Of a stretch of DNA of 64,000 nucleotides, positions 26,305 through 64,000 are shown piece after piece (position 1 is the stretch's first letter; the number at the start of each line of letters is the position of its first letter). Both the position numbers and the translations under genes were made by a program. The DNA lies in sequence record NZ_CP027239.1, one strand, 5' to 3'. Under the pieces are notes generated by a model. The model saw only the letters and a program-made list of their open reading frames with translations. It searched no databases and was not told where the DNA came from. Source of the DNA: a plasmid.

Positions 26305-26475
26305 GGGCGGGGATCCTTCATCGTGTCGGAGTGCGCGGCTAGGGTGTGGCGCCCAGTATGCGGGGCCACTGTGGCGGTGTGGCACCACAGCGGCACGGGC
26401 GCAGGGCACCATCACTGGCACCGCAAACCGCCTACCCCTGGAGCTGTTTCCCCGTGATCTCCTCGCGCCCACTCG

Positions 26476-27251
26476 TGACCTACCCACTACGGGAGGCGTC
26501 TGTCGTCGAACAGGACTCCGCCACCGCGGTCGCGGAACGCTTGGACCGGGCCGCCGACCGCGGAATGGACGAAGCCACCGTCGCCTACCCAGTCCCGCCC
26601 GGGCGGGTCGACATGAGCCAGGCGATGCAGTCCGATGCGCAGGCCTACCTCGGGCTGCCGAGTTCGGCGACCCCGTTCCGTAGAAGACAGCGACGCATCC
26701 TGCGGCGCCCCGCCCAGCGGGTCGGCATCGCCATCGACCATTCGCCCTCGATGCACGACGTCCTGGACGCGGCCGTCGCTGCGGCGTGGGTAGTGGAGGT
26801 GGCCGCCTCGCGCGCCCGGCAGGCACGCAGCACCGTTGCACTGTCGACGTTCGACACCACGGCCCACCTGGTCGAGTCGGGCTCGACCACGCACGTACCG
26901 GTGCTTTCGACCGCCGCTCCCGGCGCCGGGAACCACTCCTCAGCGCTGCCGGAGTCGCTCGAGCTGCTGCGGGGGCAGCTGGAGCTGGACCACTTCCCTG
27001 ACGACTCCCGGCTGGTCGTGGTGATCTCTGACAGCGTGCTGGCAGAGCCGGAGCGGGTCGCCCACGCGATCGACGATCTGCACGCAAGTGGCGTGCGGGT
27101 GCTGTGGATCTCGATCGACGAAGACGTCCCCGCATACCTCCCGGCCGCGACGGCCACTCTCACCGCGACCAAGGAGACGCTGATGCGGGCCTTGCCCGAC
27201 GCGGTCACCCAGGCACTGAGCGACACCGAGAACCCGGAGGGATACCAATGA
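26476..27251 (+). CDS. vWA (von Willebrand factor A) domain protein, module 1
   Basis: MIDAS DxSxS motif GIAIDHSPSM. Downstream T and D positions (LSTFDT, VVISDS). Divergent from the AAA+ gene. Start uncertain: GTG 26476 or ATG 26564. Confidence 0.55.
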
Positions 27252-28270
27252 CCGCCTGGCAGGACAGCCTTTCGCGTGGCGACAGCATGGTCGCCTGGTC
27301 TCCGGGCCGCGCAGCCCGGCAGGCCGTGGCCTGGCGGTACGCGTTCGCGCACTGGCTGACTTCTGATCAGGCCGCACTGATGCGGTACGTGCCAGAGCAG
27401 CAGCAGGCGCTGAGTTGGTGGGCAGCCACACGCGGTGATGAGCGCGCCGACATCTCCGAAGTGATGCCGGCCTGGCTGTCGACCTTCTACGGGGTGGACA
27501 CCACCGATCTGGAGGTCAGCGCGGACGATTCACTGTCGCTCACGGCCCGCCGCATCGGCAGACTGTGCGCACTGCGCTCGCAACAGATCCGCACCGCCGG
27601 CCCAGTCGTGGTGGACCCCACCTCCCAGGCCGCACTTCTGGCGATGGTCGACACCGACCGATACCGGGGGCCTGACGCCAAGGCCCTAGCCGCACTGCCT
27701 GACACGGGACTGCTGGTGTTCCCTCACCCCATCCTGCGAACCGGGAAGGTGGAAGGCCCGACCCTGCTGGCCGAACCCGCCACCCCATCGCCCCTACGAG
27801 CCATCTGCTGGTCGAGCGAGGCCACAACGCAGGGGCCCGCCATCAGGGTGCTGGACCTGGCCGACATGAGCGGGCAGTGGGGCCGCACCGGCGACGCGGC
27901 GTTCGATGCGCAGGTGCGGCAGCAACTGTCAGCGGCGCATCAGCAACTGCCGCCGCTGATGTTCCACGGGGAGGTGGCCGTAGTTGCCGGCGCGGTTGAC
28001 GGCGCGCAGCAGGCCCAGCGATCCCTGGTCAGTGCCGGCAAGGAGCGGCGGGGCCGGGCGGCCTCACCGTGGTCACCCCAGACTGTTCTGGTCGACGAGG
28101 ACGGGCTCCTGGCGTCGCGGGTGCTCAGTGTCTTCGCCCATGCGGTTACTGCGCCACTACTGGAAGGCAGTGAGAAGACTGTGCCCACGCCCGGTTCCGC
28201 GCGCGATTCGGGGGCGGGCAGCCTGACCGCAGTGAAGGTCTACAACCGGCCTGGGGGATCTGCGCCGTAG
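27248..28270 (+). CDS. hypothetical protein coupled to the vWA gene (340 aa)
   Basis: ATGA overlap with the vWA stop. GGAGGG RBS. Trp-rich N-terminus. No recognisable domain. Confidence 0.55.
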   Translation: MTAWQDSLSRGDSMVAWSPGRAARQAVAWRYAFAHWLTSDQAALMRYVPEQQQALSWWAATRGDERADISEVMPAWLSTFYGVDTTDLEVSADDSLSLTARRIGRLCALRSQQIRTAGPVVVDPTSQAALLAMVDTDRYRGPDAKALAALPDTGLLVFPHPILRTGKVEGPTLLAEPATPSPLRAICWSSEATTQGPAIRVLDLADMSGQWGRTGDAAFDAQVRQQLSAAHQQLPPLMFHGEVAVVAGAVDGAQQAQRSLVSAGKERRGRAASPWSPQTVLVDEDGLLASRVLSVFAHAVTAPLLEGSEKTVPTPGSARDSGAGSLTAVKVYNRPGGSAP

Positions 28271-28287
28271 TCGCCCCGGCGGCCCGC

Positions 28288-29082
28288 TTACCGGATCTGC
28301 AGCCTCGGAACATTCGGCACCTGCACTGGGGCCAGCTGCACATCCGGTGCAGGAGCCGGTGCAGGAGCCGGTGCGGGCGCCGGGGCAGGCGCAGGGGCCG
28401 GTGCGGGCGCAGGGGCCGGTGCGGGCGCAGCCTGCCGGACCGGCGGCTGATACTGCTGCACTGGCGGCTGATACTGCTGAACAGGGGGCTGATACCGCGG
28501 AGCAGGGGCCGGTGCGGGGGCCGGTGCGGGGGCCGGGGCAGCCTGCCGCGCAGCCGCCGGCGGAGACGACGCGGCCCTTGCCGCAGCCTCCCGCTCCTCG
28601 GCCTTCTTCCGCTCCTCTTCCTTGCGCTTGTCCTCTTCCTTCTTCCGCGCCTCTTCCTTGCGCTTCTCCGCCTCGGCTTCACGCTCGGCAACGAACTCCG
28701 ACATCGCCTCCGAGTCGAAACCCGACTGGGGCCCCGCGACCGGCTTGCGGTCCACGATCGGCGCAGCAGCCGCCTCCGGGGCGGCATCTTCCTCCGCCGC
28801 CACCGATTGGACATTGCCGGCGTCGCCACTGGCGTTGCCCAACACCATCCAGCCGCCGGCGCCGATGACGGCCGCCAGGGCGACACCCGAAGCCAGCTTC
28901 AACGCCGGCGACTTGGAGGACCGCGCGACGGACGAGGACGCGGCAGGGCGGGGACTGGGCTCGGCGCGCTCACCCGTTCGCGAGTCGGCCTCGAGGACTG
29001 CCTGGTCCTCAACATCGGCCTTCTGCGCGCGCTCAGCCTGAGCGGCTCGAATCGCTTCCGCTCGCGACATCGACTGCGTCAT
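28288..29082 (-). CDS. membrane-anchored Pro/Ala-repeat protein
   Basis: Predicted transmembrane segment (LASGVALAAVIGAGGWMVLG). Lys/Glu-rich charged segment. Three YQPPVQQ repeats and long (AP)n tracts. GGGGAGGGG RBS. Confidence 0.6.
   Translation of the reverse strand: MTQSMSRAEAIRAAQAERAQKADVEDQAVLEADSRTGERAEPSPRPAASSSVARSSKSPALKLASGVALAAVIGAGGWMVLGNASGDAGNVQSVAAEEDAAPEAAAAPIVDRKPVAGPQSGFDSEAMSEFVAEREAEAEKRKEEARKKEEDKRKEEERKKAEEREAAARAASSPPAAARQAAPAPAPAPAPAPAPRYQPPVQQYQPPVQQYQPPVRQAAPAPAPAPAPAPAPAPAPAPAPAPAPAPDVQLAPVQVPNVPRLQIR
28344..28545. repeat. coding tandem repeats: (GCCGGTGCNGGNGC)n and 3 x 21 bp
   Basis: GCCGGTGC(A/G)GG(A/G)GC reiterated at 28344-28436 and 28503-28545. ggcggctgatactgctgcact / ggcggctgatactgctgaaca / gggggctgataccgcggagca at 28441-28503. 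Confidence 0.6.
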
Positions 29083-29223
29083 ACCTGGCCCCTCCCCTGC
29101 ATGTCCCGATACCTCATCCTATGCCCGACACGTGCCGGCCCCAATGGCCTCACACAGCCGACAAACCCCGGCGATACGGTCTGTGCACAACCACCGTTCA
29201 CCATCGCCTACCCCGGAGTGACC

Positions 29224-29907
29224 ATGACCCAGCAGCACACGTTGGATCTGACTGGCCAGCGCGGCCACTGGGGATACACACGCACTCAGGGGCTATGGGC
29301 ACAGGTGCGCACCCCGCACGGGATGGTCAGCGTCGGCGACAGTGAGCCCCAGCTGCGCACCCTCGGGGCACTGGCGGCGGCACTGGATTGCGAGGACACC
29401 TGCAGCAGTGCTGGCATCACCCTCGCCGATGTCTTCGACGAACTGGACCGGACATGGAAAGCGGCCCCCGGCGAGCCGACGTGGACCACCGCGCGTATCG
29501 CCCGCCGCGACGCCGCCCGACACCTCGTGGCCCACCACGGCATGAGCGTCGCCGCCGCGGCCCATTACTGCGGCGCCTGGGCCGACGACCTCCCACCGCT
29601 GCCCGAGCGAGATCGCTTAGCCGACCCGACTGGCCGCTGGTGGATCACTGAGGACGGCACCCTGGCGCGCAGTTACGGTCACACCGAGCTGTCCGAACTC
29701 TGCGTGGTCGCGCATCGGTCAGTGCGGGCGACCTACTGCCTGTACGTGCTCCCCGGTTTGCCACACGTGGGCAAGGAGACGCGGATGCGGGAGATGCAGT
29801 GGTGGACCCCGATAGACGCCGCGACCGCCGAGGAAGTCGTGCAGCGGTGGGGAACCGCCCCAGGTCTCGTGGCGTATATCGACGACAACATCGACTGCGT
29901 CCGCTGA
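29224..29907 (+). CDS. hypothetical protein (227 aa)
   Basis: ATG 29224 after GGAG. It is the 3' part of ORF 28807..29907; the upstream part is antisense to the previous gene. Confidence 0.45.
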   Translation: MTQQHTLDLTGQRGHWGYTRTQGLWAQVRTPHGMVSVGDSEPQLRTLGALAAALDCEDTCSSAGITLADVFDELDRTWKAAPGEPTWTTARIARRDAARHLVAHHGMSVAAAAHYCGAWADDLPPLPERDRLADPTGRWWITEDGTLARSYGHTELSELCVVAHRSVRATYCLYVLPGLPHVGKETRMREMQWWTPIDAATAEEVVQRWGTAPGLVAYIDDNIDCVR

Positions 29908-51713: not shown

Positions 51714-51838
51714 ATCCCGCCTGAACTGGCCGGAAGCTACTCAGCGGGCGGCGGCATGACCCGCCCTTATGGTGTGTGCACCAAACCTCGGACCGTCCCC
51801 ATTTGTGGCGGTCTACCAACCAGGGAGGACTCGACCCA

Positions 51839-52197
51839 TGCCCAAGTTCAACATCGTTCTGCAGCTCGACGAGCACGAGAAGGAGCAGATTCAGGGGGCC
51901 TGTGACGTGAAGACGTTCTCCGCCGCGATCAAGGCGCACGAAGCGCTGGCCAAGGAGGAGGTCAAGGGACTGTCCGCGCTGCTGCGCGACAAGGTGAGCA
52001 CGGACCAGCTCGAAGTCGCGCAGTCCGCCCTGCCCGCGCTTCGCGAGCTGATGGAGTCGCTCGCCGACTCCGAGGCGAAGCACCAGGCCCTCCAGGAGCT
52101 CTCGCAGGCGGCCGGGACGTTGGAGGCGCTCTCGGCCGCCCAGGAATCGTTGAAGGAGCTGCAGCAGGCCGCCGGTGGCCACGACTCCAACTCCTGA
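51839..52197 (+). CDS. hypothetical helical protein (119 aa)
   Basis: GGGAGGA RBS before ATG 51839. Confidence 0.45.
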
Positions 52198-52676: not shown

Positions 52677-53486
52677 TCAGGCTGCGGGGTCCGCGGCGTT
52701 CTCGGATTCCTTGTGGGTAGGAGTGATGTCGAGGAGGCCGCACATGCGGTCGACGCGATGCCAGGTGGTGCGCAGGTTGGCGGCGATTCTGTGGAGCGGC
52801 ATCCCGCGCTCGACACCGAGCCGCACTACCTCGAGCTCGTCGTGAGGTTCCAGGATTTCCCTGGTGCCCGGGTCGATCGGGCGTCGTGTCTGGTTGAGCC
52901 GGTGCCGAGTGACGGTGGCGTCCAGCGCCTCCGGTCCGAGGGCGAAGTAGACACCTCGCTTGTTGATGCGCGGCGGGCTCAAGTCGACGTCAGGCACCCA
53001 TTCGGCTTGGGGACCGTTGATCTGATGGATGGCCGCTGACAGGTCGTCGGCGAAGTCGAACATGCCTTGCCCTACGGCCGTCTCGGCGGATGCCGTCCTG
53101 GTCGACGGTCTCTTCGTGGAGGCGGGCTTGGACTCGGGTACGGCCCGGGTGCGCTTCGGCGCCGGGGCGGGGGCGTTCCCGTAGGGCTTGCTGTTCTCGT
53201 CGAACAGGATCCCTGCCTGGACGACGCCTACCGGCGGGACACCTCGACTGGCGCTCCCGTCGAGCACCGCGGCGGTCTCCGCACGGCACTGCATCAGCAG
53301 GGGGCACGAGTGGCAGGCGGCGATGGCGGTGCGGGCACGCCGCACCTCTTCGTCGCATAGGACCGCCCCTCGGAAGTTGAACGGGTCGAACAGGTCGATG
53401 TTGACCTGGCAGGAGCGCCGAGGGGCGGCGGGTCGTTGCTGCCGATGCGGGGAGCGAGGGGACTGGACGGCGATTGTCGCACTCAT
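52677..53486 (-). CDS. WhiB-like domain protein with long C-terminal extension
   Basis: CDEEVRRARTAIAACHSCPLLMQC carries the Wbl C...C-x2-C-x5-C cluster. About 200 additional residues follow. In-frame GTG 53549 is an alternative start that would add 21 aa. Confidence 0.5.
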   Translation of the reverse strand: MSATIAVQSPRSPHRQQRPAAPRRSCQVNIDLFDPFNFRGAVLCDEEVRRARTAIAACHSCPLLMQCRAETAAVLDGSASRGVPPVGVVQAGILFDENSKPYGNAPAPAPKRTRAVPESKPASTKRPSTRTASAETAVGQGMFDFADDLSAAIHQINGPQAEWVPDVDLSPPRINKRGVYFALGPEALDATVTRHRLNQTRRPIDPGTREILEPHDELEVVRLGVERGMPLHRIAANLRTTWHRVDRMCGLLDITPTHKESENAADPAA

Positions 53487-53758
53487 CGCGTAGACCTTCC
53501 TGGGGCTGCCCTCCGCCGCCGTCAACCGCCTGTACGTGGAGGCCGACACCAGCAGAAAGCGAGTGGCAGTTTGATTCCGATGGTGATGACCCTAACAGCC
53601 CAGTGCGCGTTATTGCATCTTCAACGCGAACATTCGACGAATAAACGCACTGCCTGAGGCCGATGCCTGTCGGGTGCCACAGATGTCGCACCCGCCTGAG
53701 ACGATGCGGCCATCGGAATCAGACAGCGGGACCGGCGTCGCGCCGGAAAGGAGCCATC

Positions 53759-55093
53759 GTGGCCTACAAGATCGGCGTTCTGGGATGCCAGCACCTCGGC
53801 TACCGCATGCGCGCCATGCGGATGCACCCCTCGGGACTGAACCTGCGAGAAGTGGACGGGTACGTCGCTCACCGCCTGACCTACGAGTCCATGCTCGCTG
53901 CCGGCGTGAACGGCATCGTCGACGGTGGCGACTTGTTCCACGTGGCAGAGCCCAGCCCCGAGTCCGTCAACGCGGCCCTGCGAGTCGACGACCTGCGGGT
54001 GGACGCCTCTCCCGACGATCGGTTCATCTGGCGCGTCGGCAACGGCGGCAACCACGACAACGGATCAGGCCGGCATCGGGCCGCAGTGTCGGCGCTGCAC
54101 CGCCCGCACCTGGCCAGCCACGCGGTGTTCCCCGATCCCACACGGCCCGAGAGGGAGGCCGTCACCCCGTACCCCGGCTACTACGAGATCCACCAGCCCG
54201 ATCCGGACGTGCCGCTGTACCTGCACGTGATCTCGCACAACGGCTTGGACCCGGCACTGGCAGACCGGGGGATCAACATCGACCCACAGCCGCTGCCTGG
54301 CGGGGTGAACCTGCTGTTCGCCCACGGCATTTTCGCGGCAGATGGGCGGCTGTTCGGCGCCGACGAAAGGCACGGGGCTGAGCGGGTGATCCCCGCCGAG
54401 TGGGCCGACCGCGGGTTCGATCATTACCTGCTGTCGGACTATCACACGCTGGGCCCGATCCCCGGTTTCGGACCCGACGACGGCTACGAGCGCGGCCAGG
54501 TCTGGATGACTGGCAGCCTTCTGACCAGGGGTTTTAGTGATGAGATCGCCGGTCGTGGCTGGCTCGAAGTGGAGCTGCGCGACGACGGCACGGTCACGGT
54601 GACCCCACGCTACATCTGGCAGCGCCCGCAGGTCGATTTCCCAGTTCTGGACGCCTCCCAACTGTCGGTCGAGCAGATCGACCAGCAGGTCCGGGCACGC
54701 TTGCACGCCCAAGCCATGACCGACGAGGAGTCGGCCGAACTGACCGGCGATGGGGGAGCGTTGCTGAGGCAACGCATCAGCGGGGCGTCACCGTCGCAGA
54801 AGCCGGCGCTGCGGGCCGCGGCGATCGAGTGGGCGCACCTGGCGGCCGAGGCCGCGTTCTTCGGGGTCAGCTTCATCAACTCCACGAGCCTGACCGCCAA
54901 GCCCGGTGAGCGTGGCGAGACCGGCGAAGCCGGACCCGCGCGGGTGACCGATTACGTCGGCGAGTTCACCTCTCGCGCCGACGGCGACGGCGCTGTTGCT
55001 CGCGCCCTCAATGCCCTGCCCGGCGAGGTTCGCGCCCGCGTCGCCGACCGCACCCGACGAGTCCTGGCCGACGTGGCCGTCGACGCCGACTAA
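53759..55093 (+). CDS. sbcD: SbcD/Mre11-family metallophosphoesterase nuclease
   Basis: Calcineurin-like motifs: GVLGCQHLG (I), VDGGDLFH (II), GNGGNHDN (III), FAHGI. AAAGGAG RBS before GTG 53759. Immediately followed by the SbcC-like gene. Confidence 0.7.
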   Translation: MAYKIGVLGCQHLGYRMRAMRMHPSGLNLREVDGYVAHRLTYESMLAAGVNGIVDGGDLFHVAEPSPESVNAALRVDDLRVDASPDDRFIWRVGNGGNHDNGSGRHRAAVSALHRPHLASHAVFPDPTRPEREAVTPYPGYYEIHQPDPDVPLYLHVISHNGLDPALADRGINIDPQPLPGGVNLLFAHGIFAADGRLFGADERHGAERVIPAEWADRGFDHYLLSDYHTLGPIPGFGPDDGYERGQVWMTGSLLTRGFSDEIAGRGWLEVELRDDGTVTVTPRYIWQRPQVDFPVLDASQLSVEQIDQQVRARLHAQAMTDEESAELTGDGGALLRQRISGASPSQKPALRAAAIEWAHLAAEAAFFGVSFINSTSLTAKPGERGETGEAGPARVTDYVGEFTSRADGDGAVARALNALPGEVRARVADRTRRVLADVAVDAD

Positions 55094-55113
55094 CAGACCT
55101 GGAGGAGACATCA

Positions 55114-57476
55114 TGCGCATCACCCACCTGCACGGGACGAACTTCCGATCCCTGGACGACGTCGCGCTCGATCTGACCGACGACGGCATGATCGCCCTGA
55201 TCGGCGCCCCCGGCAGCGGGAAGTCGTCGCTGCTGTCACTGGTGCCGTTCGTGCTCTACGGCGACACCGGACAAAACGGCACCCTGACCGATCTGCGCCG
55301 CCGGGGCAGCGACGAGAACGAGCGGTGTGGCGGCACCATCACCCTCACCCACAACGGGGATCGGATTGAAGCCAGCCGCTGGCTGACCCGCACCCGCCCC
55401 AAGGGCAGGATCAAGGAGACCGGACACGCCTCCCTGGCCATCAACGGTGAGTTCGTCGACGGCATCACCCCGACCCGACTCACCAGCGAAATCACGCGCA
55501 TCTTGGGCCAGCCCAAGGACGCGTTCCGGGGCGCGAACTTCATCGGGCAGGGCGAGGTCGACGTGCTGGCCACCGCCACCCCGACCGAAGTGCAGGCCCT
55601 GGTGGAGCATCACACCGGCCTTGCTCCACTGACGAAGGCCCGCCAGCGGGCCAGGGAGGCGGCCCGCGAGGCCGCGACCAAGGCCAAGGCGTTGCCCGGC
55701 GACGAGGCCGACCTCCGAGTGGCCGAGAGCAACCTCGCCGAGGCTGAGGATGAGACCGCCGAAGCCCGCGAGGCCGCCCGCACCGCGGGTGCGCAGCGCG
55801 ACCGGTCCCGCGAGAACCTGGACGCCGCCACTGCCGAGGCTGACCGACTGCGCGAGGCCACCGATGCCGCCCGCTCCAGCAAGGACCGTCTCGTCGGAGC
55901 TCGCGCCATCGCGGCATCCGCCCGGGACCAGCTCGCCCAGACCATCCGAGAGGCAGAGCCCGCCATCGGCGGGATCGACCTCGACACGATCCCCGCCCAG
56001 ATGGCCGACGTGGACGCCAAGCTGCAGGAACTGACCGACGCCGGAGTCGCCTACAAGCACTTCCGGACGGCTGCGGCCCGCGCAGAGTCCTACGCCGCCG
56101 AAACCCACCGGACTGCCCAGGGAATCGACCGGGAGGCGCTGGGCCGCGAGGTGGACGAGGCCAAGGCCAAGATCGTGGCGGCCGACTCCGACGGCAGGGC
56201 CGCGGCCGAGCTCGGCGCGGCAGCCGAGGCCGAAGCGCGGCGCATCGAGCGCGCACTTGACCAGCTCAACCATGCCGAGTCAGGCAAGGCCTGCTGCCCG
56301 ACATGCCGTCAGCGGGTCGCCGACCTGGACGGGTTGCGGGCGCAGTTCCAGCAGGAGCTCGCCGACTGCCAGGACCGGCTGGCCAAGGCCCACGCTGCCC
56401 GGCGCACCGCAGGCGCCGCGCACGAGCAGGCCAGTGATGCACTGGCACGGGCCACGGCCACCCTTCGCGACGCGGACACGGCGGCGAGGGACGCCGCGCG
56501 GGCCGATCAGGACCGCCTCGCTGCGGTCTCCACTGCAGACGAGCGGGCGCAGGTGCTGCGTGCGGCGATCACGGCCCTCGACGGTCAGGTCGATCCGCAC
56601 TGCCAGGGCCAGGAGCTGCTGGACGCCGGGCTGACAGCCCACGCCCACGCCAAGCAGGCCCTGGCCGGGATGCAGGCCGCCCAGCAGGCCGGGCAGGCGA
56701 TCAGTCGAGCGCACGCCGCGGTCGCGAACGCCGACCAGGCCGTCGCCGCTGCGCAGGAGGGGCTGCGCGATGAACCGGACCCGGAGGCCCTGCGGGCGGC
56801 CGTGGAGACGGTCAGGCAGCTGCAGGCCGACCACGACGAGAAGGTCGCCGCAGCTTCCCGCGCCGAGCGGCTGCTCAGCGCCTGCGAAGTGGGGGCGGGG
56901 GAGATGCGCGTGCGGGTGGAGGCCGAACGCGCCAAGTGGGACGCCAAGAGCAAGGCCCTGACCGACGCAGAAGTCGCCGCCGGCACCGCCGACGCGATCA
57001 CCGCGCTGCGGTCGGAGTTGCTGGCCGAGTACACCGGCCAGATCTCGACGTCAGCCACGGAACTGCTGGCGCGGTTCGGTGGCGAGCACGTGGCGTTCCA
57101 CCTGGACTCGGACTTCGTGCCGCGGGTGGAACTGCTGGACGGCACCCTGGTCGACACCCGCACCCTGTCAGGCGGGGAGAAGGCCCGGGCCGGGCTGGCG
57201 TTCCGTCTCGGGATCACCCTGCAGATCACCCAGGGCGGGGTGCCCGACCAGGTGTTGGGCGACGAGGTGACCAACTACCTCGACGAGGACGGGCGCCGCG
57301 CAGTGATCGCCGCACTGCAGCAGCTGTTCCCGTCGGTGGTGCTGATCTCCCACACCAGCGAGGCGTTGGACTTCGCTTCACGCACGATCAGCCTGGATCG
57401 GGACCCCCTCGGGGCCACCACCGTGCATGGTCAGCCGCAGCCCGAGCCGGAGTCGGCTCTGGCCGAAGCGGTCTGA
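55114..57476 (+). CDS. sbcC: SbcC/Rad50-family SMC-like ATPase with zinc hook
   Basis: Walker A GAPGSGKSS. Long coiled coil with central CPTC zinc hook. ABC signature LSGGEKARAGLA. D-loop VLGDEVTNYLD. H-loop ISHT. GGAGGAGA RBS. Confidence 0.8.
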
Positions 57477-57515
57477 GACTGCCGCGGGCCCCGCGGGGGC
57501 GCCCCCGCGGGGCCG

Positions 57516-58748
57516 TCACCAGGTGCTGGGCACCGACTGGTGAGTAGCGCCGGATACCAGCGCCCCTCCGGCGGCGAAACGGTCGCCGAACCGCCGACGG
57601 AACAGCGCCAGCGTTTCCTCCCGGTCCGCCAGGGTCGGCGCCTTGGACACCAGCGCTTCCGCGGCGAACTCGACGTCGACCGCGGTAGCCAGGTCCCGCA
57701 CGGCCAACAGCTCACGCAGCGACGGAACCCACCTGTCGAGACCGTCGGCCCGGTCCGCGTCCGCCCGCCGCTTCAACGCTTCCGCCACGTCGATCACCAC
57801 GGTCGGTACCTCCAACTGGTGGGCGGTGGCGAAGTCGGTGGGCACCTCGATCACCAGGGCCATGCGGTTGCGTACCGGCTCGGATAAGCCCGGGCCGTTG
57901 CCCGGGTTGAACGTCAGGATGAGCGTGAACCCGTCGGCGGCCTGCAGATGCTGGGTGCCGGGCCGGTCGATCACGTCGATACTGCGGCGCGTGTCCAGCG
58001 CCGGATGCAGCGCCGTCTGCACCCCCTGGTGCAGGGCGCCGGCATCGTCGAGCAGGAGAGGGCGTCCCTGTTCCATGGCCCGCCACAGGGGCCCGTCGAT
58101 CCACTTGAACGGGCCTTCGTCGCCCGGTACCGGCTGGTGCAGTCCCACCAGGTCCGGCCATGTTGTCGCTGTCGAGCAGGGCACGATGATCAGCTCGTCA
58201 CCGAGCGCTTCGCGCACCAGGGTCGTCTTGCCCGAACCCGGCGGGCCACCGAGGGCGATCGGCTGTCCGGTCTCGGCGATCGTGCGGATGATGTGGACGT
58301 CGGAGCGGCCGGCCAGGGTGCGGGGAATGTAGGTGTCCCGCATCTGGCGGGCCAGGTCCGGTGACAGTTGGACGATCATCTCCAGGAACGTGTCTGGGTC
58401 GGCCCGCATCGTCCTCTCCGCGTTCACGGCGAGCGCGAACTCGCGGGCGATCACCTCCGCTGGCCTCTGCGTTGTCGCCAGGTCGTCGTCGATGTTGATC
58501 ACTCCGGGCCGCACGTGGTGGGGCACTTCTCCGGGAGCGCACTGTTGCTCGATCTCGCGGGCCGCCGCCCTCAGCGCCTCGACTCGAGCCTTCGGCGAGG
58601 GAGGGAGAGGGTCATGTCGGGACAGGGGATCGGTGGCGCTGCCCCACACCCGAATCCCGGTGTCGGTGACGAGGTTGACGTAAGTCGAGTCGACCTCATC
58701 GTCGAACTGGTCCTCGTCGGGGACGAACCCAAACCCGAACGCCAGCAT
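57516..58748 (-). CDS. MoxR-like AAA+ ATPase (AAA_5 type), module 2
   Basis: Walker A GGPPGSGKTT. Walker B PLLLDDAGA. Sensor-1 LILTFNPG. Arg finger VRNRM. Collinear with 25024..26304 (GDELIIV.. versus GEDLIVV.., ..GPLWRAMEQGRPLLLDD versus ..GPLAEAMRQGKVLLIDD). Confidence 0.8.
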   Translation of the reverse strand: MLAFGFGFVPDEDQFDDEVDSTYVNLVTDTGIRVWGSATDPLSRHDPLPPSPKARVEALRAAAREIEQQCAPGEVPHHVRPGVINIDDDLATTQRPAEVIAREFALAVNAERTMRADPDTFLEMIVQLSPDLARQMRDTYIPRTLAGRSDVHIIRTIAETGQPIALGGPPGSGKTTLVREALGDELIIVPCSTATTWPDLVGLHQPVPGDEGPFKWIDGPLWRAMEQGRPLLLDDAGALHQGVQTALHPALDTRRSIDVIDRPGTQHLQAADGFTLILTFNPGNGPGLSEPVRNRMALVIEVPTDFATAHQLEVPTVVIDVAEALKRRADADRADGLDRWVPSLRELLAVRDLATAVDVEFAAEALVSKAPTLADREETLALFRRRFGDRFAAGGALVSGATHQSVPSTW

Positions 58749-58919
58749 CTGTCGTGAACGTCCCTTCGTGTGCCACCCCTGCGGCCGGGGTCGTTGCCGC
58801 GATCGTATCGGCCCACCATGCCGCCGCTAGGCGGGCTACGCGACCGCCGGTCGGCGGCATGCCCGGCTGATACAACAGGTGCCTGCATCCGTTGCCGGCA
58901 GCGAGGAGTGGCCGCACCC

Positions 58920-60548
58920 ATGGCGCTATGGTCCGTCACCGAGGAGTCGGTGCTGCTCATGCTGCAGGGCTGGGGAGCGGCGGTGGAGCAGGTCCGCATC
59001 GTGCCCACTGGCTCGTCCGGGGCGCCGGCGCCGGTGTACCTCGATGGCGACACCGCGGTGATCGAAGCCGAACGGGCCGGCCTTCCCCGTTCCGCGCAGG
59101 GTGTGAAGGTCGACTCGCTGACCCATCAGCTCAACGATCCCCGTGCAGCCGCCCGATTGGCGGCGGTGTGCGCCCCCTTAGTCACCTCGACCTGGCGGCA
59201 CGCCGGCCTTCCGTCGGACCCGCGGCTCGCCGGGTTGATGCTCGAGCTCGACCAACTGCGCGCCGAGGCCCAACTGCGGCGCCGCCAGCCCTCCCTGCGG
59301 CTCCTGCTGCCCACGATCAGCACGTGGCTGGCCCGCACGCCGATCTCCGGCAGTGACGATGCCGCCGCCTACCAACTGCTGACCGCCGTGTGCCCGAGAG
59401 CGGACGCCCTGGTGTTTCCCACCTCGACCACAGAGCACGTGAAGCCCGCACTCGTGGACTACCTCGGACCCGCCGTGATGCGCGAGTACGTCACCACATG
59501 GCGGCGCATCCTGGCGGCCCCGGACCAGCGCTCCGCAGTGATGTCGCTGGCCGACACCTGGCTCCAACTGGCCGATGCCCGGCTTCCCCGCCACCACGAC
59601 CGCACGTCCAATCCCGAACTGCTGTCCAGGGTCAGTCGCCGCGCCACCTCCGACCTCGAGCAGGCCGAGGCGACTGCACTGGAGGCGGTCGCCTCGCTGC
59701 GCGCCGACCTGGACGCCACCGCCACGTCAGAGCGCCGCACCACAGAACTGGACCCCGACCATGGGATCGCAGGCGCCGGAACAGGCCTGCCCGCGCACCG
59801 GTCCCTACGACACCGGCCCGCCACGGAAGAAGATCACCTTCTGCGAACGCAGCTGCGCGCGGCACTGTCGGTAGCCAAACGGCGCCAGCTATCCACCGTG
59901 GACCACCCCACCCAAGCACCCACCGGCAGGACCGACACTCGCGAACTGGTCCGCATGAGCGCACAGCAGCACGCCGGCACCCCGGTCACCGCCACCCCCT
60001 GGACCCGGCACATCCCCGAGATGGACGACCAGCCCGACATCCGGGTCGCCGCCGTGCTGGATACATCCGCGTCCATGGCACCGTGGCTGGAGTCGGCGAC
60101 TGCGTTGATGTGGGCAGTGGCCTGCGCAGCCCGCGACCTCGGCGGATCCGCCACCGTATGGGGGTTCGGCGGCGACGCCTTCGAGATCGTCCGCATCGGC
60201 TCGGCGCCCCACCTCGTCCCGCAGATCCGCGACACCGGCGCCGGCTCCGACGGATACGCCGAGGCCGTGAGCCGGGCCTGCGACTCCGCGGATCTGATCG
60301 GCAGTCGAGGCGCCCGCCTGCTGGTGGTGCTGACCGATGGCCGACTGAAAGACCCGGAGGAGGCCCGCCGACTGCAGCAGACCCTGGCCGACGCCGTTGC
60401 CAGCGGCGTCACCGTCCTATGGGCCCTGACCGGAGGCACCACCAACGCTCTGGTCCCGGACCAAGCAATCGTCGCTCAGGGGGTGACCCCGCGCCGCTTC
60501 GCCGAAGCCGTGAACCGCGTCCTGATCAACACCGTCAGCGCCACCTGA
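58920..60548 (+). CDS. large protein with C-terminal vWA (MIDAS) domain, module 2
   Basis: VAAVLDTSASM is DxSxS. VVLTDG supplies the downstream MIDAS Asp. About 350-aa N-terminal region of unknown function. GAGGAG RBS. Divergent from the AAA+ gene. Confidence 0.6.
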   Translation: MALWSVTEESVLLMLQGWGAAVEQVRIVPTGSSGAPAPVYLDGDTAVIEAERAGLPRSAQGVKVDSLTHQLNDPRAAARLAAVCAPLVTSTWRHAGLPSDPRLAGLMLELDQLRAEAQLRRRQPSLRLLLPTISTWLARTPISGSDDAAAYQLLTAVCPRADALVFPTSTTEHVKPALVDYLGPAVMREYVTTWRRILAAPDQRSAVMSLADTWLQLADARLPRHHDRTSNPELLSRVSRRATSDLEQAEATALEAVASLRADLDATATSERRTTELDPDHGIAGAGTGLPAHRSLRHRPATEEDHLLRTQLRAALSVAKRRQLSTVDHPTQAPTGRTDTRELVRMSAQQHAGTPVTATPWTRHIPEMDDQPDIRVAAVLDTSASMAPWLESATALMWAVACAARDLGGSATVWGFGGDAFEIVRIGSAPHLVPQIRDTGAGSDGYAEAVSRACDSADLIGSRGARLLVVLTDGRLKDPEEARRLQQTLADAVASGVTVLWALTGGTTNALVPDQAIVAQGVTPRRFAEAVNRVLINTVSAT

Positions 60549-60627
60549 GCAGGGCGCCGCACCTACACCACAACTACGACAGCCCGCCGCTACCGTGACC
60601 CCACCGCAGCCAGAAAGGACCCACCCC

Positions 60628-61671
60628 ATGACCGCCCCAGCGCACAACAGTGACGTCACCCCGATCACCGCCATCACCGCGGACCAGCTAGACACCCTCG
60701 ACCCGAACCTGCTCACCCCGCCCCTGGTGACCAGCGACGGACACCACGACGAGATCGGCGCCGCCCACGGCCGAGTACTGCCGATGATCGGCCGGTGGCG
60801 GCCGTACGTGGTGGACGTCAACGCCACCAAGCTCGCAGGCAAGGGCACCCGCATCTACGCCGACACCGCCGACGACGCCGTGGCGATGCTCGTCGGCGGC
60901 GACGCGCCCGCGGCGATCGCCGAGCTGCGCGCAGCCAGAGACGACCTCGGCGTGGACCCCGCTCCCGAACCGCCACCGACCAGGGACGAGTTGCTCCTGA
61001 TCGGCGCGGACGATGCCGACGACGAGGCCCTCGCGTTCGTCGAAGAGCTCGACCCTCAAACCCAGCAGGCCTACGACGAGTACCGGGCTCGGCGTGACCG
61101 GCTGGAGGCGGCGCAGATGCGGGTCGCTGCGCTGCTGACCGACCATGCGACCGGGGTGCGGATACGGCTGCAGCAGCAGCTCAACGCCGCCGCTGTCGAT
61201 GACGGCCGCTGGGAACGCCTGGACGAGGACGAACGCGACGAGCTGACTGCCTGCGCGGCCACGGGCGAGCAGGGGCGGCGCCCGTTCGGGATTCCGGAAA
61301 TGGTGCCGTTCTTCGACGAGGACGGCGAGGAGGCCGGCGAGGTCGCGCGGGGCGAGTGGCGGGCCGATGTGCCGCTGGTGTGTCTGCGCACTGACTACCT
61401 GCCGTTCACGGGCACGGCGTCGCCTCTGTCGGTGGTGACAGGGACCGCCCCCACAGGGGCGGAGTTCTGGGTGCCGGGCGATCCGAATCTGGTGTGGCTC
61501 AACCCCGCCGATCCCGCTGACTACCTGCAGTCACTTGCCGATGCCGGGCTGGTGGAGCTCACGGAGCGGCCGGTCGACCACGCCGTCGAGCTGATGCGTC
61601 CGTGGCTGAGGGAGAAGCGGCAGCGCGACCTTGAGCGGGCGCAGGCGGCAGCCGCCAGTCAGGGCGACTAA
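60628..61671 (+). CDS. hypothetical acidic protein downstream of the vWA gene (347 aa)
   Basis: AAAGGA RBS before ATG 60628. No recognisable motif. Confidence 0.45.
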   Translation: MTAPAHNSDVTPITAITADQLDTLDPNLLTPPLVTSDGHHDEIGAAHGRVLPMIGRWRPYVVDVNATKLAGKGTRIYADTADDAVAMLVGGDAPAAIAELRAARDDLGVDPAPEPPPTRDELLLIGADDADDEALAFVEELDPQTQQAYDEYRARRDRLEAAQMRVAALLTDHATGVRIRLQQQLNAAAVDDGRWERLDEDERDELTACAATGEQGRRPFGIPEMVPFFDEDGEEAGEVARGEWRADVPLVCLRTDYLPFTGTASPLSVVTGTAPTGAEFWVPGDPNLVWLNPADPADYLQSLADAGLVELTERPVDHAVELMRPWLREKRQRDLERAQAAAASQGD

Positions 61672-61895
61672 GCCAGGGAGTCCAATGGGCGCGATCAGGG
61701 GCGGGCACTGCTTCGGCAGCGCCCGCCCCGTTGTCGTTTCGTCACGGCTTATTGCCTGCCGATCCGACCCCCGTCGTGGCCAGCGGCGACGGGTGTGGCC
61801 TGCATGAATGGCCGGACAGATTCGTTGACAGTGGGCCTTGCGTGCGGCATCGTCACAAGCATCGGAATCAAAACTGCACGAAGGGAAAGTCCCCA

Positions 61896-64000
61896 TGGTG
61901 TGTCGGGAAAATAAGGGCCGTTCGGCGATGATCGGTCTGGCCAAGTCGTTCCAGCGGATGATGGGCCACCCAGTCGATCACGACGCGAATCTGCAGTCCA
62001 TGCAGCACCAGCTGCGCCACGAAGTCGAGGCCGCGGACTCCAAGTACTCCAGCTTCGACAGCTGGCCCCAGGAGGAGCAGGTCAAGGCGTGGAAGGAGCT
62101 GCGCGCACGGGTCGAGGAGCTGCCCGAGGGGACGATGAGTGCCGCCCGTCGGTACGGCGAGTCCAAGACCAATCCGGGCATCATCACCCGCATCGACCAG
62201 GAGATCGCGCGGCTGGGCTCGGGCAAGCACGAGAACGGTGCCCCACTCAAGGGGGTGCAGCGCAACACCGGCGCCGACATGGTCGCCTCGATGAAGATCG
62301 TCTCCGTCATGGAACGGCTCGTGCCGGCCCGCCGCAGCTTCCTGGAGAACCAGGCCCGCCGCCGCGGCGTGCCATACGCCGAAGTCGAGTCCGAGTGGCT
62401 GGAGAAGATCAACGAGAAGGGCAACTTCTCCAACATCAGCCTCACCGACGAGTACCGCGATTCCCTCGCGGTGTCCGGCGTCAACGCCCAGGATCAGGCC
62501 GACCTCGGCCAGTCCGGACGGGCCCGCGCCGCGATGGCCGCGATGGAGAAGAAGACCCAGGAATCACTGGCCGAGCACCGCAAGAAGTACGCGCCCCGGC
62601 CGGCGATCACCGACAAGCACGTCCTGGGCACCTACACCAAGCCGGGCGGCGAGGGCTCCGTGCGGTGTGCGGGCTGCGGCCAGTTCGGGCATGAGGAGAA
62701 GGCCTGCCCGAACACCGATCTGACCGAGACGCTGGACGCAGTGTCCGCGCAGTCCCAGATTCTCGACCGGCATCAGAGCGTGCTGGACCGCAAGGAGATG
62801 CTGGCCACCCGCAGCGAAGAAGAGATCCAGGCGGTGTTCGACGCTAAGGCGCCGGGCATGACCGTGGCCAAGTTCAAGGAGGCCGTCGCCCGGGACGAGA
62901 AAGAGCTGGGGGAGCCGCTGAAAAGTGCGGCAACGGTGCAGAAGATGCGCCGCAAGTTCGAGAAGGAAGGTGCAGCTGCCCTCGAGGAGCTCAAGTCCCG
63001 CGAGCCGAAGGTGTCCAACTGGGTGCAGTCGGTGGCCTACAACCCGAACAACGGCCTGCTGCAGGTGACGATGCACCCGAGCAAGTCGGGCAAGCAGTAC
63101 CCGCCCCGCTACTTCCGGGCCCGGCCCGAAGAGGTCGACGCCCTGATGGACCACCCGTCCATCGGCAAGGCCCTGCACGCCGGATTCTTGAGCAAGAACC
63201 AGGTCGCCGAGGGGCACGAGTTCGAGAACGCCGCCGACTTGGCTGAGGCCATGGAGGAGACCCGCTGCCCCACCTGTGGCCGGTGGGCGTCGCTGAACTC
63301 GAGCCACCAGTGCCCGGTCATCGGCGGCCCGTCGGAGGAGGTCGATCACCTCCGGGCCCGCAACGTCATGGCCTACCAGGCGATGGCCCGCACCGCCCGC
63401 GAGAACGGCGAGGTGATTCCCGCCAAGCCCCCGACGCTGGTGCAGTCGCTCAAGGGCGCCACCGATCACAGTGGCCTCCAGCATCCGAAGACCAAGGAAA
63501 CGATCGCTGGAGCACTGCGTTCTGGGTCGAAGCAGGAGGCATTGGCCGTCACCGAGGACGGCAACCGCATGTGGGACTCGGCCGTCTCGTTCAACGGCTC
63601 CGACGACGACTGGCACGTGTCGGGGCACGTGACGGTGTGGAAGGACCCGGAGACCGGAAACCGAGTGCTCGGCATCGACGGCCAGTCCGGCAACCCGGGA
63701 CTGCGGTGCCAGTGCGCGGAGTACCAGAAGACGCGCCGCTGCCCCCACGTTCGTGCCGTCGGGTATCGCCTGGCGAACAAGTACGAGGCCGTCCCAGCCG
63801 CGCGCTCTGCCCGCGCGGGCGAACCCCTGCGACTGCAGCAGCAGGGGCTCGCCAACGACGCAGCGTCACTCCCGCCGGAGCGGTTGAGCTACGAGACGAT
63901 GTCGGCCATGCGGGTCGACGCGATGCGGCAAACTCTCGAGGCCGCAGACACCCACGGTGTTGCCCGCCTGCCGGAGACCCTGTGGCCGAGCAAGGCCACC
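61896..64000 (+). CDS. large multi-zinc-finger protein (SWIM zinc finger + CCHC zinc knuckle), 3'-truncated by the window end
   Basis: Open frame from ATG 61896 (AAGGGA RBS) to the window end, at least 701 aa. It is absent from the ORF track because no stop is reached. CAGCGQFGHEEKACPN is a C-x2-C-x4-H-x4-C knuckle. CPTCGRWASLNSSHQCPV is a second zinc motif. CQCAEYQKTRRCPHV matches a SWIM C-x-C-xn-C-x-H finger. Minus ORFs 62564..63748 and 61978..62484 are antisense shadows. Confidence 0.6.

Follow-up and report, generated by a model that had tools for sequence, protein, structure and literature searches.

A conserved MoxR ATPase-von Willebrand factor A gene pair with a degenerate zincin-like domain in the predicted backbone of an actinobacterial megaplasmid

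RESULTS

A putative backbone block of Dietzia-type megaplasmids

We analyzed a 64,000-nucleotide stretch of the plasmid in sequence record NZ_CP027239.1 (the whole stretch is referred to as the window), with emphasis on positions 57,516 to 64,000. This region encodes a MoxR-class AAA+ ATPase (AAA2), a divergently oriented protein with a C-terminal von Willebrand factor A (vWA) domain (vWA2), an acidic protein (Acid), and a large zinc-finger protein that runs off the end of the window (Big). Comparison with related loci identifies the region as a conserved backbone block of a Dietzia-type actinobacterial megaplasmid, old rather than recently diversifying. As family alignments show, this plasmid family keeps two evidently ancient paralogous ATPase-vWA pairs (module 1, AAA1-vWA1; module 2, AAA2-vWA2), of which the pair studied here has lost its zincin motifs and kept its metal ion-dependent adhesion site (MIDAS). 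The observation that an initial annotation had made on this DNA is real, its interpretation is partly supported, and some of its coordinates are corrected here (Table 1).

We compared gene order across 22 related loci. Dietzia, Rhodococcus, Prescottella, Nocardia, Gordonia, and Corynebacterium all share the order SbcD-SbcC-AAA-vWA-acid-big, with protein identities of 30-45%. In one Rhodococcus clade, AAA2 is flipped and co-directional with the other genes, its position unchanged. Upstream of the block lies a gene for a VirB4/HerA-like DUF87 ATPase. Downstream of big are genes for a protein of 356-426 amino acids and a YdjM-type hydrolase, followed in Dietzia by an intein-bearing FtsK/SpoIIIE gene and a DUF932 gene. 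In Dietzia sp. 179-F (locus L004, 15524-20032), the product of this FtsK/SpoIIIE gene has 1,502 amino acids with LAGLIDADG/Hom_end matches, a sign that this transfer ATPase may contain an intein.

At the protein level, the nearest relatives belong to Dietzia (a 232-kb contig of Dietzia sp., 82% identity), and a 24-kb contig (L003) that is 99-100% identical to the window provides the missing 3' end of the large gene. Megablast of positions 53600-64000 against plasmid and phage collections returned no match; relatives in those collections are therefore found at the protein level only. By its gene order, the block reads as conserved plasmid backbone and not as a variable defense island.

The two ATPase-vWA pairs are ancient paralogs

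Both ATPases exceeded the gathering cutoff of PF07728 (22 bits), with 53.3 bits for AAA2 and 73.5 bits for AAA1. AAA2 has a Walker A motif (GPPGSGKT, 58224-58247), a Walker B motif (LLLDD, 58044-58049), and an Arg conserved in VRNRM. In its Walker B motif, Asp replaces the usual Glu (DD versus canonical DE). The DD form is shared by AAA2 of Dietzia, Rhodococcus DN22, Prescottella, Gordonia, and Corynebacterium, and DE is found in Nocardia and one Rhodococcus clade (loci L012 to L014). The orthologs of AAA1 keep the canonical DE, whereas AAA1 of the window has DD.

In a direct pairwise comparison (BLASTP), AAA1 and AAA2 were 31% identical over 261 amino acids (E = 5e-21), in an alignment that opens some 30 residues ahead of Walker A and reaches the C-terminal helical region. 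Their partners vWA1 and vWA2 were 31% identical over 200 residues (E = 6e-11). The two ATPases are thus collinear beyond the Walker motifs and the two pairs are paralogous, each divergently oriented, as had been proposed.

Each paralog also has its own orthologs. Those of AAA1 are 44-48% identical on Rhodococcus plasmids and 41% identical in Streptomyces anulatus, and those of AAA2 are 38-45% identical on the same Rhodococcus plasmids. A tblastn search of PLSDB with AAA1 found two sites per record in Rhodococcus plasmids carrying the large protein; on p1 of Rhodococcus sp. DN22, the orthologs of AAA1 (47.5% identical) and AAA2 (44.7%) lie ~95 kb apart. The plasmid search also found CbbQ/NorQ genes at ~30% identity. 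In a neighbor-joining tree, an AAA1 clade (the window, four Rhodococcus, and one Streptomyces sequence) stood apart from the AAA2 sequences.

Because each paralog has closer orthologs of its own while the paralogs are only 31% identical, the duplication is old. The two modules are ancient paralogs that arose before these plasmids diverged, both being stably inherited backbone genes. Recent duplication or diversification was considered and rejected, since AAA1 and AAA2 have separate orthologs on the same plasmids, and the earlier description of a "modular system under diversification" is not upheld. Nor does the same architecture occur twice: only the ATPase-vWA pair is duplicated. A tblastn search within the window found nothing elsewhere, and nothing near module 1, that resembles Acid, Big, or the N-terminal domain of vWA2; module 1 sits in a different neighborhood, without acid or big.

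vWA2 carries a putative pseudo-protease domain and an intact MIDAS

vWA2 most likely starts at 58920 (542 amino acids) and not at 58770, because its homologs have 541-548 amino acids and a GAGGAG box lies 12 nucleotides upstream of the ATG at 58920. With this start, the N-terminal extension that had been given as 350 amino acids is real and measures about 360. A sigma-70 consensus scan of the region between AAA2 and vWA2 called no promoter.

vWA2 has the features of the vWA (Rossmann-like) fold. Its MIDAS consists of DTSAS (D381/S383/S385) and TDG (T472/D473), and D381, S383, S385, and D473 do not vary among 36 sequences. The DxSxS motif is kept in both vWA1 and vWA2, in agreement with the MIDAS assignment made initially.

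Module-1-type vWA proteins of Rhodococcus and Streptomyces (564-638 amino acids) have an N-terminal domain in which an invariant HE[AVC][AG]H is followed, some 25 residues downstream, by LEE[PS]R[IA]E, a combination that we read as a zincin-like signature. The vWA2 family aligned with the module-1-type family over 452 columns, N-terminal extension included (hhalign, probability 99.95%, E = 6.4e-38). HExxH and LEE[PS]R were present in 24 of 24 module-1-type sequences and in none of 12 module-2-type sequences, with the MIDAS intact in both groups. The aligned positions in the 12 module-2-type sequences are A-[VA]-[CIL]-[AS]-P and L-[ED]-L-D-Q-x-R; vWA2 itself has AVCAP and LELDQLRAE. Because the domain is homologous to the zincin-like domain but its motifs are gone in all 12 sequences, the N-terminal domain of vWA2 is interpreted as a catalytically dead relative, a predicted pseudo-protease. 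No peptidase family appeared among the Pfam matches of the 36 vWA-family members or in a PDB profile search. The pseudo-peptidase form was seen only at the AAA2-vWA2-acid-big position.

vWA1 of the window matched VWA_CoxE at E = 2.3e-5, under the cutoff. In tblastn searches with orthologs of 592 and 638 amino acids, it was matched by their C-terminal vWA part only; it lacks the whole N-terminal HExxH domain of its Rhodococcus and Streptomyces orthologs. With no such domain in vWA1 and DD in Walker B of AAA1, module 1 of this plasmid looks reduced.

The block includes an SbcCD-like pair and a conserved acidic protein

The SbcC-like protein matched AAA_23 (E = 1e-11) and SMC_N (E = 5e-11) in Pfam and Rad50 (E = 3.6e-28) in NCBIfam, and its zinc hook is KACCPTCRQ (CPTC). 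Its PADLOC matches were confined to the ABC/SMC ATPase head (mad3, LmuB). The translation of the SbcD-like gene shows the motifs DGGDLFH, GNGGNHD, and AHG; motif I is CQH instead of DxH, and motifs II and III are clear. The protein had weak NCBIfam Mre11 matches only (E = 0.003-0.05) and no match in the Pfam scan. The two genes adjoin each other in Dietzia, Rhodococcus, Prescottella, Nocardia, Gordonia, and Corynebacterium.

The pair thus has what defines SbcCD/Mre11-Rad50, a zinc-hook ATPase with an SMC-type head beside a calcineurin-like metallophosphatase, in the order nuclease to ATPase as in sbcDC, and the placement of SbcCD next to the second module stands. It differs from known SbcCD in that the nuclease half is very divergent (Pfam-negative, motif I CQH) and in that the pair is plasmid-encoded and permanently linked to the AAA2-vWA2-acid-big block.

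The 347-amino-acid acidic protein noted earlier is a real gene with conserved homologs. Acid had no match in Pfam, NCBIfam, PADLOC, or PHROGs. Wherever a locus includes upstream sequence, those of Streptomyces and Nocardioides among them, a homolog of Acid immediately precedes the large gene. Conserved motifs of these homologs include HGRxLPLVGxxRPY, RIYAD, LQxxIN, and NTGDY.

The gap between vWA2 and acid is 79 nucleotides, and that between acid and big is 223 nucleotides (15 nucleotides in Corynebacterium). The latter holds a hairpin (Table 1), and the predicted fold of positions 61672-61760 has an energy of -47 kcal/mol (z = -3.0 versus shuffles). A consensus terminator scan did not call this hairpin, its U-tract being imperfect, and the promoter/terminator scan was otherwise uninformative. 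Co-transcription of the four plus-strand genes had been raised earlier; because of the strong GC-rich hairpin in the gap before big, a single obligatory four-gene transcript is unlikely in this plasmid.

Big is a multi-zinc-finger protein related to plasmid amidoligase proteins

The window holds 702 codons of big; the full-length protein, sought since the initial annotation, is available as a 99%-identical copy of 881 amino acids (P0001). Three zinc motifs of Big (a CCHC knuckle, a CxxC...HxC ribbon, and a SWIM finger) are invariant or nearly so in 32 homologs, which confirms the knuckle, second Cys/His motif, and SWIM finger first seen in the truncated protein. The knuckle (CAGCGQFGHEEKAC) has the exact C-x2-C-x4-H-x4-C spacing with all four ligands invariant, and its best PDB profile matches were the knuckles of TUT4 and Gag, both weak. 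Among the SWIM ligands, C605 is at least 90% conserved and C607, C616, and H618 are invariant; in a structural model, the motif is predicted to comprise a strand (603-605) followed by helices.

Searches with family profiles gave a divided result. SWIM (PF04434) matched 18 of the 32 family members (best E = 7.8e-5), zf-CCHC_6 matched 20 (best E = 1.3e-5), and zf-CCHC matched 7, whereas the window copy alone had no match to the SWIM profile at E ≤ 0.1 and reached only E = 0.03 with zf-CCHC_6. SWIM membership of Big is accordingly established on the family as a whole, and the outcome that would have refuted the initial annotation, motifs with no score against these profiles, did not occur. SWIM fingers are not rare in bacteria, and a retrovirus-type CCHC knuckle is unusual there; the earlier remark that both are uncommon in bacteria therefore survives for the knuckle only. 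The KTSC domain has the features of its fold.

All or nearly all of the 32 homologs (27-87% identity) share the N-terminus MVCRENKGRS (61895-61924 in the window), with more invariant residues within the first 210 positions. The MxCR start is common even to distant amidoligase-bearing relatives. Codon third positions at the N-terminus are free to vary, which indicates selection on the protein; an RNA or DNA element behind the invariant residues was rejected on the same ground.

An exhaustive profile search found 317 relatives, of which ~36 representatives are full-length family members. A second tier of relatives (820-1,400 amino acids) has the MxCR N-terminal domain, KTSC, ribbon, and SWIM, followed by a C-terminal Amidoligase_2 domain (PF12224). 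The two groups align over residues 1-638 of Big (hhalign, probability 100%, E = 9e-46), and Big shares with the amidoligase-bearing proteins the MxCR domain, KTSC, CxxC...HxC ribbon, beta domain, and SWIM finger. Unlike those proteins, Big has no amidoligase, a glutamine-synthetase-like domain with ExE and HxH motifs; its C-terminal 240 residues could not be aligned with that domain and contain no invariant acidic residue or histidine. The CCHC knuckle and a long coiled coil (residues 250-375) form an insertion specific to the Big family. By this comparison, the Big branch has apparently swapped the amidoligase for a non-catalytic C-terminal domain and gained the knuckle and coiled coil. We found no recognizable toxic or enzymatic domain in Big, and the polyvalent-protein paper has no joint mention of these domains.

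Streptomyces alboflavus plasmid pMDJK44.1 (locus L029, 7865-13044) carries three tandem stand-alone amidoligase genes, with ParB-N, replication-relaxation, DUF4417, gamma-glutamylcyclotransferase, and N6-methylase genes as neighbors. The amidoligase domain found in distant relatives of Big is, as these tandem genes show, itself a plasmid-associated module.

Relatives in actinophages and known MoxR-vWA systems

Homologs of both AAA2 and vWA2 occur in Microbacterium phages Pumpernickel, Zooman, Big4, Cece, and A3Wally, in Gordonia phages Phendrix, GodonK, GMA2, and Sixama, and in Actinomycetia phage DSL-LC01. In these large actinophages the two genes often adjoin each other, with ATPase identities of 30-38%. 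Pumpernickel gp295 (locus L030, 4959-6932) has HEAMH...LLEEPRIE and DISGS. We found no homolog of Big in the phage collection. In profile searches, AAA2 matched PHROG 249 (phage CobS-like, E = 4.8e-18) and PHROG 16448 (E = 1.5e-23); AAA1 likewise matched PHROG 249, which is annotated as "porphyrin biosynthesis." Among the phage genes, Pumpernickel gene 295, a peptidase-vWA homolog, is annotated as "AAA-ATPase," the vWA homolog of DSL-LC01 as "cobalamin biosynthesis protein," and the AAA homolog of Phendrix as "porphyrin biosynthesis." All of these labels look wrong.

A MoxR ATPase with a vWA cochaperone bearing an N-terminal metallopeptidase domain has been described in group 2.2 jumbo phages, with a proposed role in virion assembly, and an assembly role is reported for the Acidianus two-tailed virus (Iyer et al. 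2021, PMC7824862). In phages, pairs of this kind often bear CobS/CobT-like annotations. Matched by description, the plasmid pair resembles the jumbo-phage pair: an AAA_5 ATPase and a C-terminal vWA/MIDAS domain after a zincin-like domain, on a mobile element. In these comparisons the pair is shown to belong, by homology, to a mobile-element lineage of MoxR plus vWA with an N-terminal zincin-like domain on the vWA protein. It differs from the jumbo-phage pair in that HExxH and EEPR are missing from module 2 (12 of 12 sequences), module 1 of the window has no N-terminal domain, and Walker B reads DD rather than DE; its host element is a plasmid, to which virion assembly does not apply.

The general mechanism of MoxR-vWA systems is capture of a client by the MIDAS, followed by ATP-driven remodeling (PMC7159879). 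NorQ/NorD, CbbQ/CbbO, RavA/ViaA, and Rea1 (Midasin) share the AAA_5-type ATPase with the plasmid pair, which would be expected to work in this manner. Unlike in those systems, no metalloenzyme client is encoded nearby and the N-terminal domains of both partners differ; identity to NorQ/CbbQ is ~30% over the ATPase core only, and the plasmid context is DNA metabolism.

MoxR-vWA pairs also regulate predicted conflict systems in Actinobacteria, in which a vWA protein with variable C-terminal effectors is joined by a third component (VMAP, iSTAND, FtsH, or a beta-propeller) (Kaur et al. 2020, PMC7159879). The plasmid pair shares with vWA-MoxR-VMAP systems the MoxR-vWA core, actinobacterial hosts, extra conserved genes, and more than one paralogous pair per replicon. 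It does not fit that ternary organization: a degenerate peptidase precedes its C-terminal vWA domain, which nothing follows, none of these third components was detected, the block is a syntenic core rather than a variable locus, and PADLOC is empty, the absence of VMAP being judged on architecture only. PADLOC returned no match for vWA2, Acid, or Big and nothing beyond P-loop noise for AAA2, and membership in a known defense system was rejected on these results. Likewise, the match to PHROG 249 is the pair's only link to CobS/CobT; no NCBIfam family with either name was matched, and no CobN-like protein was found among the open reading frames scanned.

Plasmid setting and other features of the window

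GC content is 64-72% across the window, with a clear GC3 coding signal. In Pfam scans, the large open reading frames give the gene set typical of an actinobacterial conjugative megaplasmid. Besides the genes in Table 1, they include an RNB nuclease, an exonuclease-UvrD helicase, a small FtsK/SpoIIIE ATPase, a DnaG primase, a cutinase-like protein of 1,218 amino acids, a DUF87/HerA (VirB4-like) ATPase, and a KfrA_N protein. The methyltransferase-SNF2 protein is a methylase-helicase dyad, as in polyvalent proteins of conjugative elements. An Rfam scan of 53000-64000 found no match. The PLSDB records of relatives are listed as circular, MOB-suite typed all inspected plasmid relatives as non-mobilizable, and RecG, SSB, RusA, and DnaB-like genes are present on the same plasmids as relatives of the block.

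The stop-free frame at 28174-29907 (+) is of Arg/Cys/Leu-rich low complexity over its first ~350 codons and normal-looking over its last ~230, and the real gene inside it is probably much shorter. A 142-amino-acid open reading frame at 51769-52197 (+), kept in Dietzia relatives, has a weak Pfam match to the Death-effector domain (E = 4e-4, 21 bits versus a cutoff of 35.9). Bacterial Death-like domains are linked to MoxR-vWA conflict systems, and this match may be due to chance.

Table 1. Coordinates of the block, of module 1, and of other genes in the window.
Feature	Coordinates	Strand	Evidence or remarks
Methyltransferase-SNF2 helicase protein, 1,597 amino acids	4424-9217	-	S-adenosylmethionine methyltransferase domain N-terminal
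Insertion sequence-type DDE transposase	17609-19114	+	DUF772 + DDE_Tnp_1; breaks into backbone
AAA1, AAA_5 ATPase of module 1, 426 amino acids	25024..26304	-	PF07728 E = 2.2e-20; Walker B LLIDD
vWA1, short vWA/MIDAS protein of module 1	26343..27251	+	Start uncertain; homology from near 26514
SbcD/Mre11-like phosphoesterase, 444 amino acids	53759..55093	+	Length per gene call in locus L003; metallophosphatase motifs
SbcC/Rad50-like SMC-family ATPase, 787 amino acids	55113..57476	+	Pfam and NCBIfam matches; CxxC zinc hook
AAA2, MoxR-class AAA+ (AAA_5), 410 amino acids	57516..58748	-	PF07728 E = 3.7e-14
AAA2-vWA2 divergent intergenic region, 171 nucleotides	58749..58919	.	Presumed promoters
vWA2, 542 amino acids	58920..60548	+	Zincin-like N-terminal domain, disordered linker, C-terminal vWA/MIDAS
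vWA2 zincin-like N-terminal domain	~58920-59714	+	Predicted catalytically dead; AVCAP (59163-59177) in place of HExxH
vWA2 vWA/MIDAS domain	~60028-60545	+	DTSAS at 60060-60074
Acid, conserved acidic protein, 347 amino acids	60628-61671	+	Isoelectric point 4.35; fold unassigned by profiles
GC-rich hairpin	61698..61729	+	9+4 bp stem, UUCG loop, then GTTGTCGTTTCG; possible terminator/attenuator
Big, large multi-zinc-finger protein	61895..64000	+	Residues 1-702 of 881 inside window
Big N-terminal domain with MVCRENKGRS	61895-62599	+
Big CCHC knuckle	62666-62707	+	C258/C261/H266/C271; coiled coil next
Big KTSC domain	~63014-63214	+	PF13619
Big zinc ribbon CxxC...HxC	63266-63313	+	C458/C461/H471/C473
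Big beta domain + SWIM CxCx8CxH	SWIM 63707-63748	+	C605/C607/C616/H618

DISCUSSION

Our preferred reading, to which we give a probability of roughly 40%, is by analogy with characterized MoxR-vWA pairs: AAA2-vWA2 would be an ATP-driven remodeling chaperone for plasmid machinery that processes DNA, with Acid, Big, and SbcCD as its likeliest clients. As in the analogous NorQ/NorD, RavA/ViaA, and Rea1 systems, vWA2 would capture the client through its MIDAS, and the AAA2 ring would spend ATP to remodel or release it; the dead peptidase domain of vWA2 would act as a binding module. The client would be the neighboring nucleoprotein machinery, that is, Acid, Big, and/or SbcCD. That machinery, in turn, may process the ends, single strands, or protein-bound parts of plasmid DNA in replication, transfer, or establishment.

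Several observations weigh against this reading. The Glu-to-Asp change in Walker B of AAA2 may make ATP turnover slow or altered. The hairpin and the 223-nucleotide gap part acid from big, and nucleic-acid binding by Big is suggested by its domain types only. Streptomyces plasmids hold acid-big with no AAA/vWA genes within 10 kb; there, acid-big lies 6-8 kb downstream of the SbcC-like gene, with a module-1-type pair ~36 kb away. Conversely, actinophages hold the AAA/vWA pair without the large protein. Because each occurs alone in some elements, neither AAA/vWA nor acid and big strictly needs the other, which also weakens the initial suggestion that the large protein is the effector or sensor of the system.

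A bolder version of the chaperone reading, which we think improbable, is an undescribed megaplasmid DNA-processing machine in which the MoxR ATPase and its pseudo-protease/vWA adaptor load, unload, or recycle Big and Acid. Such a machine may work on single-stranded or protein-capped plasmid DNA, together with a dedicated Mre11/Rad50-like nuclease, in transfer, establishment, or end maintenance, and the invariant MVCRENKGRS may be part of a new functional site.

Of the alternatives, the one that fares best, though we hold it to be rather unlikely, is that the pair serves the mobile element as a general chaperone of assembly, for instance of a conjugative apparatus, and that its adjacency to SbcCD and acid-big is mere gene order. 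The same pair is found in large actinophages with no homolog of Acid or Big, and module 1 stands in another neighborhood without these genes. An assembly role fits the proposal for jumbo phages and the report on the Acidianus two-tailed virus (PMC7824862), and the block itself lies between the DUF87/VirB4-like ATPase and FtsK-like transfer ATPases. However, mere gene order is hard to reconcile with an AAA2-vWA2-acid-big adjacency that survives deep divergence, even where AAA2 has flipped strand in a Rhodococcus clade, and the specialized pseudo-peptidase form is confined to exactly that position.

We also consider it unlikely that the block is a plasmid defense or counter-defense system comparable to the MoxR-vWA "ternary conflict systems," with Big as sensor or effector and the SbcCD-like nuclease as an arm, as the initial annotation had read it. 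In its favor, regulation by MoxR-vWA pairs is described for predicted actinobacterial conflict systems (PMC7159879), and the SMC heads of Lamassu LmuB and MADS mad3 are similar to the SbcC-like protein. Other genes of conflict type include one for a giant methyltransferase-SNF2 protein on the plasmid and those for N6-methylases that adjoin the Streptomyces homologs, and the weak Death-effector-domain match lies 5 kb upstream. Against these stand the absence of PADLOC matches for AAA2, vWA2, Acid, and Big, and an architecture opposite to that of VMAP systems, the vWA domain being C-terminal with no effector after it. Moreover, the block is a syntenic core in six genera and not a patchy, swappable island, the modules are old paralogs and not diversifying cassettes, and Big has no recognizable toxic or enzymatic domain, its branch having lost the amidoligase.

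Still less probable is a third reading, in which the pair and SbcCD handle protein-capped DNA ends. By analogy with the Wss1/SPRTN zincin, its AAA+ unfoldase, and Mre11-Rad50, relaxase or terminal-protein adducts on transferred or linear DNA would be the substrates, module 1 would be proteolytic, and module 2 would be a non-proteolytic adaptor. Linearity, with terminal proteins bound to the 5' ends, is common among the large plasmids of Rhodococcus and Streptomyces. Module-1-type proteins do fuse a zincin-like HExxH domain to vWA, module 2 lies tightly beside an Mre11/Rad50-like pair, and RecG, SSB, RusA, and DnaB-like genes are carried by the same plasmids. Yet this reading is pure analogy: module 2 has no catalytic residues, module 1 of the window has no zincin domain, the PLSDB records are listed as circular, and the phage homologs have no obvious need for such a function.

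Metal insertion of the CobS/CobT or NorQ/NorD type, with the pair as a chelatase or cofactor-loading chaperone, is very improbable: both ATPases match PHROG 249, phage homologs are annotated as cobalamin biosynthesis proteins, and CbbQ/NorQ is found at ~30% identity in plasmid searches, but "porphyrin/cobalamin" labels are a known carry-over among phage AAA_5 proteins, the neighbors are DNA-metabolism and transfer genes, the scanned open reading frames include no gene for a CobN-like subunit, nitric oxide reductase, RuBisCO, or B12 synthesis, and the NCBIfam match of the ATPase is sub-cutoff (GvpN, E = 0.003, 17 bits versus 267), with no CobS- or CobT-named family.

Collectively, the finding is real and better defined than in the initial annotation, yet less exotic. 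Because the same architecture is found in jumbo phages (PMC7824862) and in the actinophage homologs, the pair is a known kind of mobile-element module; what is new is its pseudo-peptidase form and its plasmid backbone context. These results also correct misleading phage annotations, namely "cobalamin/porphyrin biosynthesis" and, for the vWA partner, "AAA-ATPase." Beside AAA2 and vWA2 stands an acidic/zinc-finger protein pair that is conserved and uncharacterized.

Large plasmids of Rhodococcus, Dietzia, Gordonia, Nocardia, Corynebacterium, and Streptomyces bear catabolic, resistance, and virulence traits, and their transfer and maintenance are poorly known. A block of six to eight genes whose order is fixed across these genera is a promising candidate for a core function of the plasmids, and it now offers three handles: a MoxR/vWA pair with a pseudo-enzyme peptidase domain, the always-adjacent acid/big pair, and the family link between Big and the amidoligase proteins.

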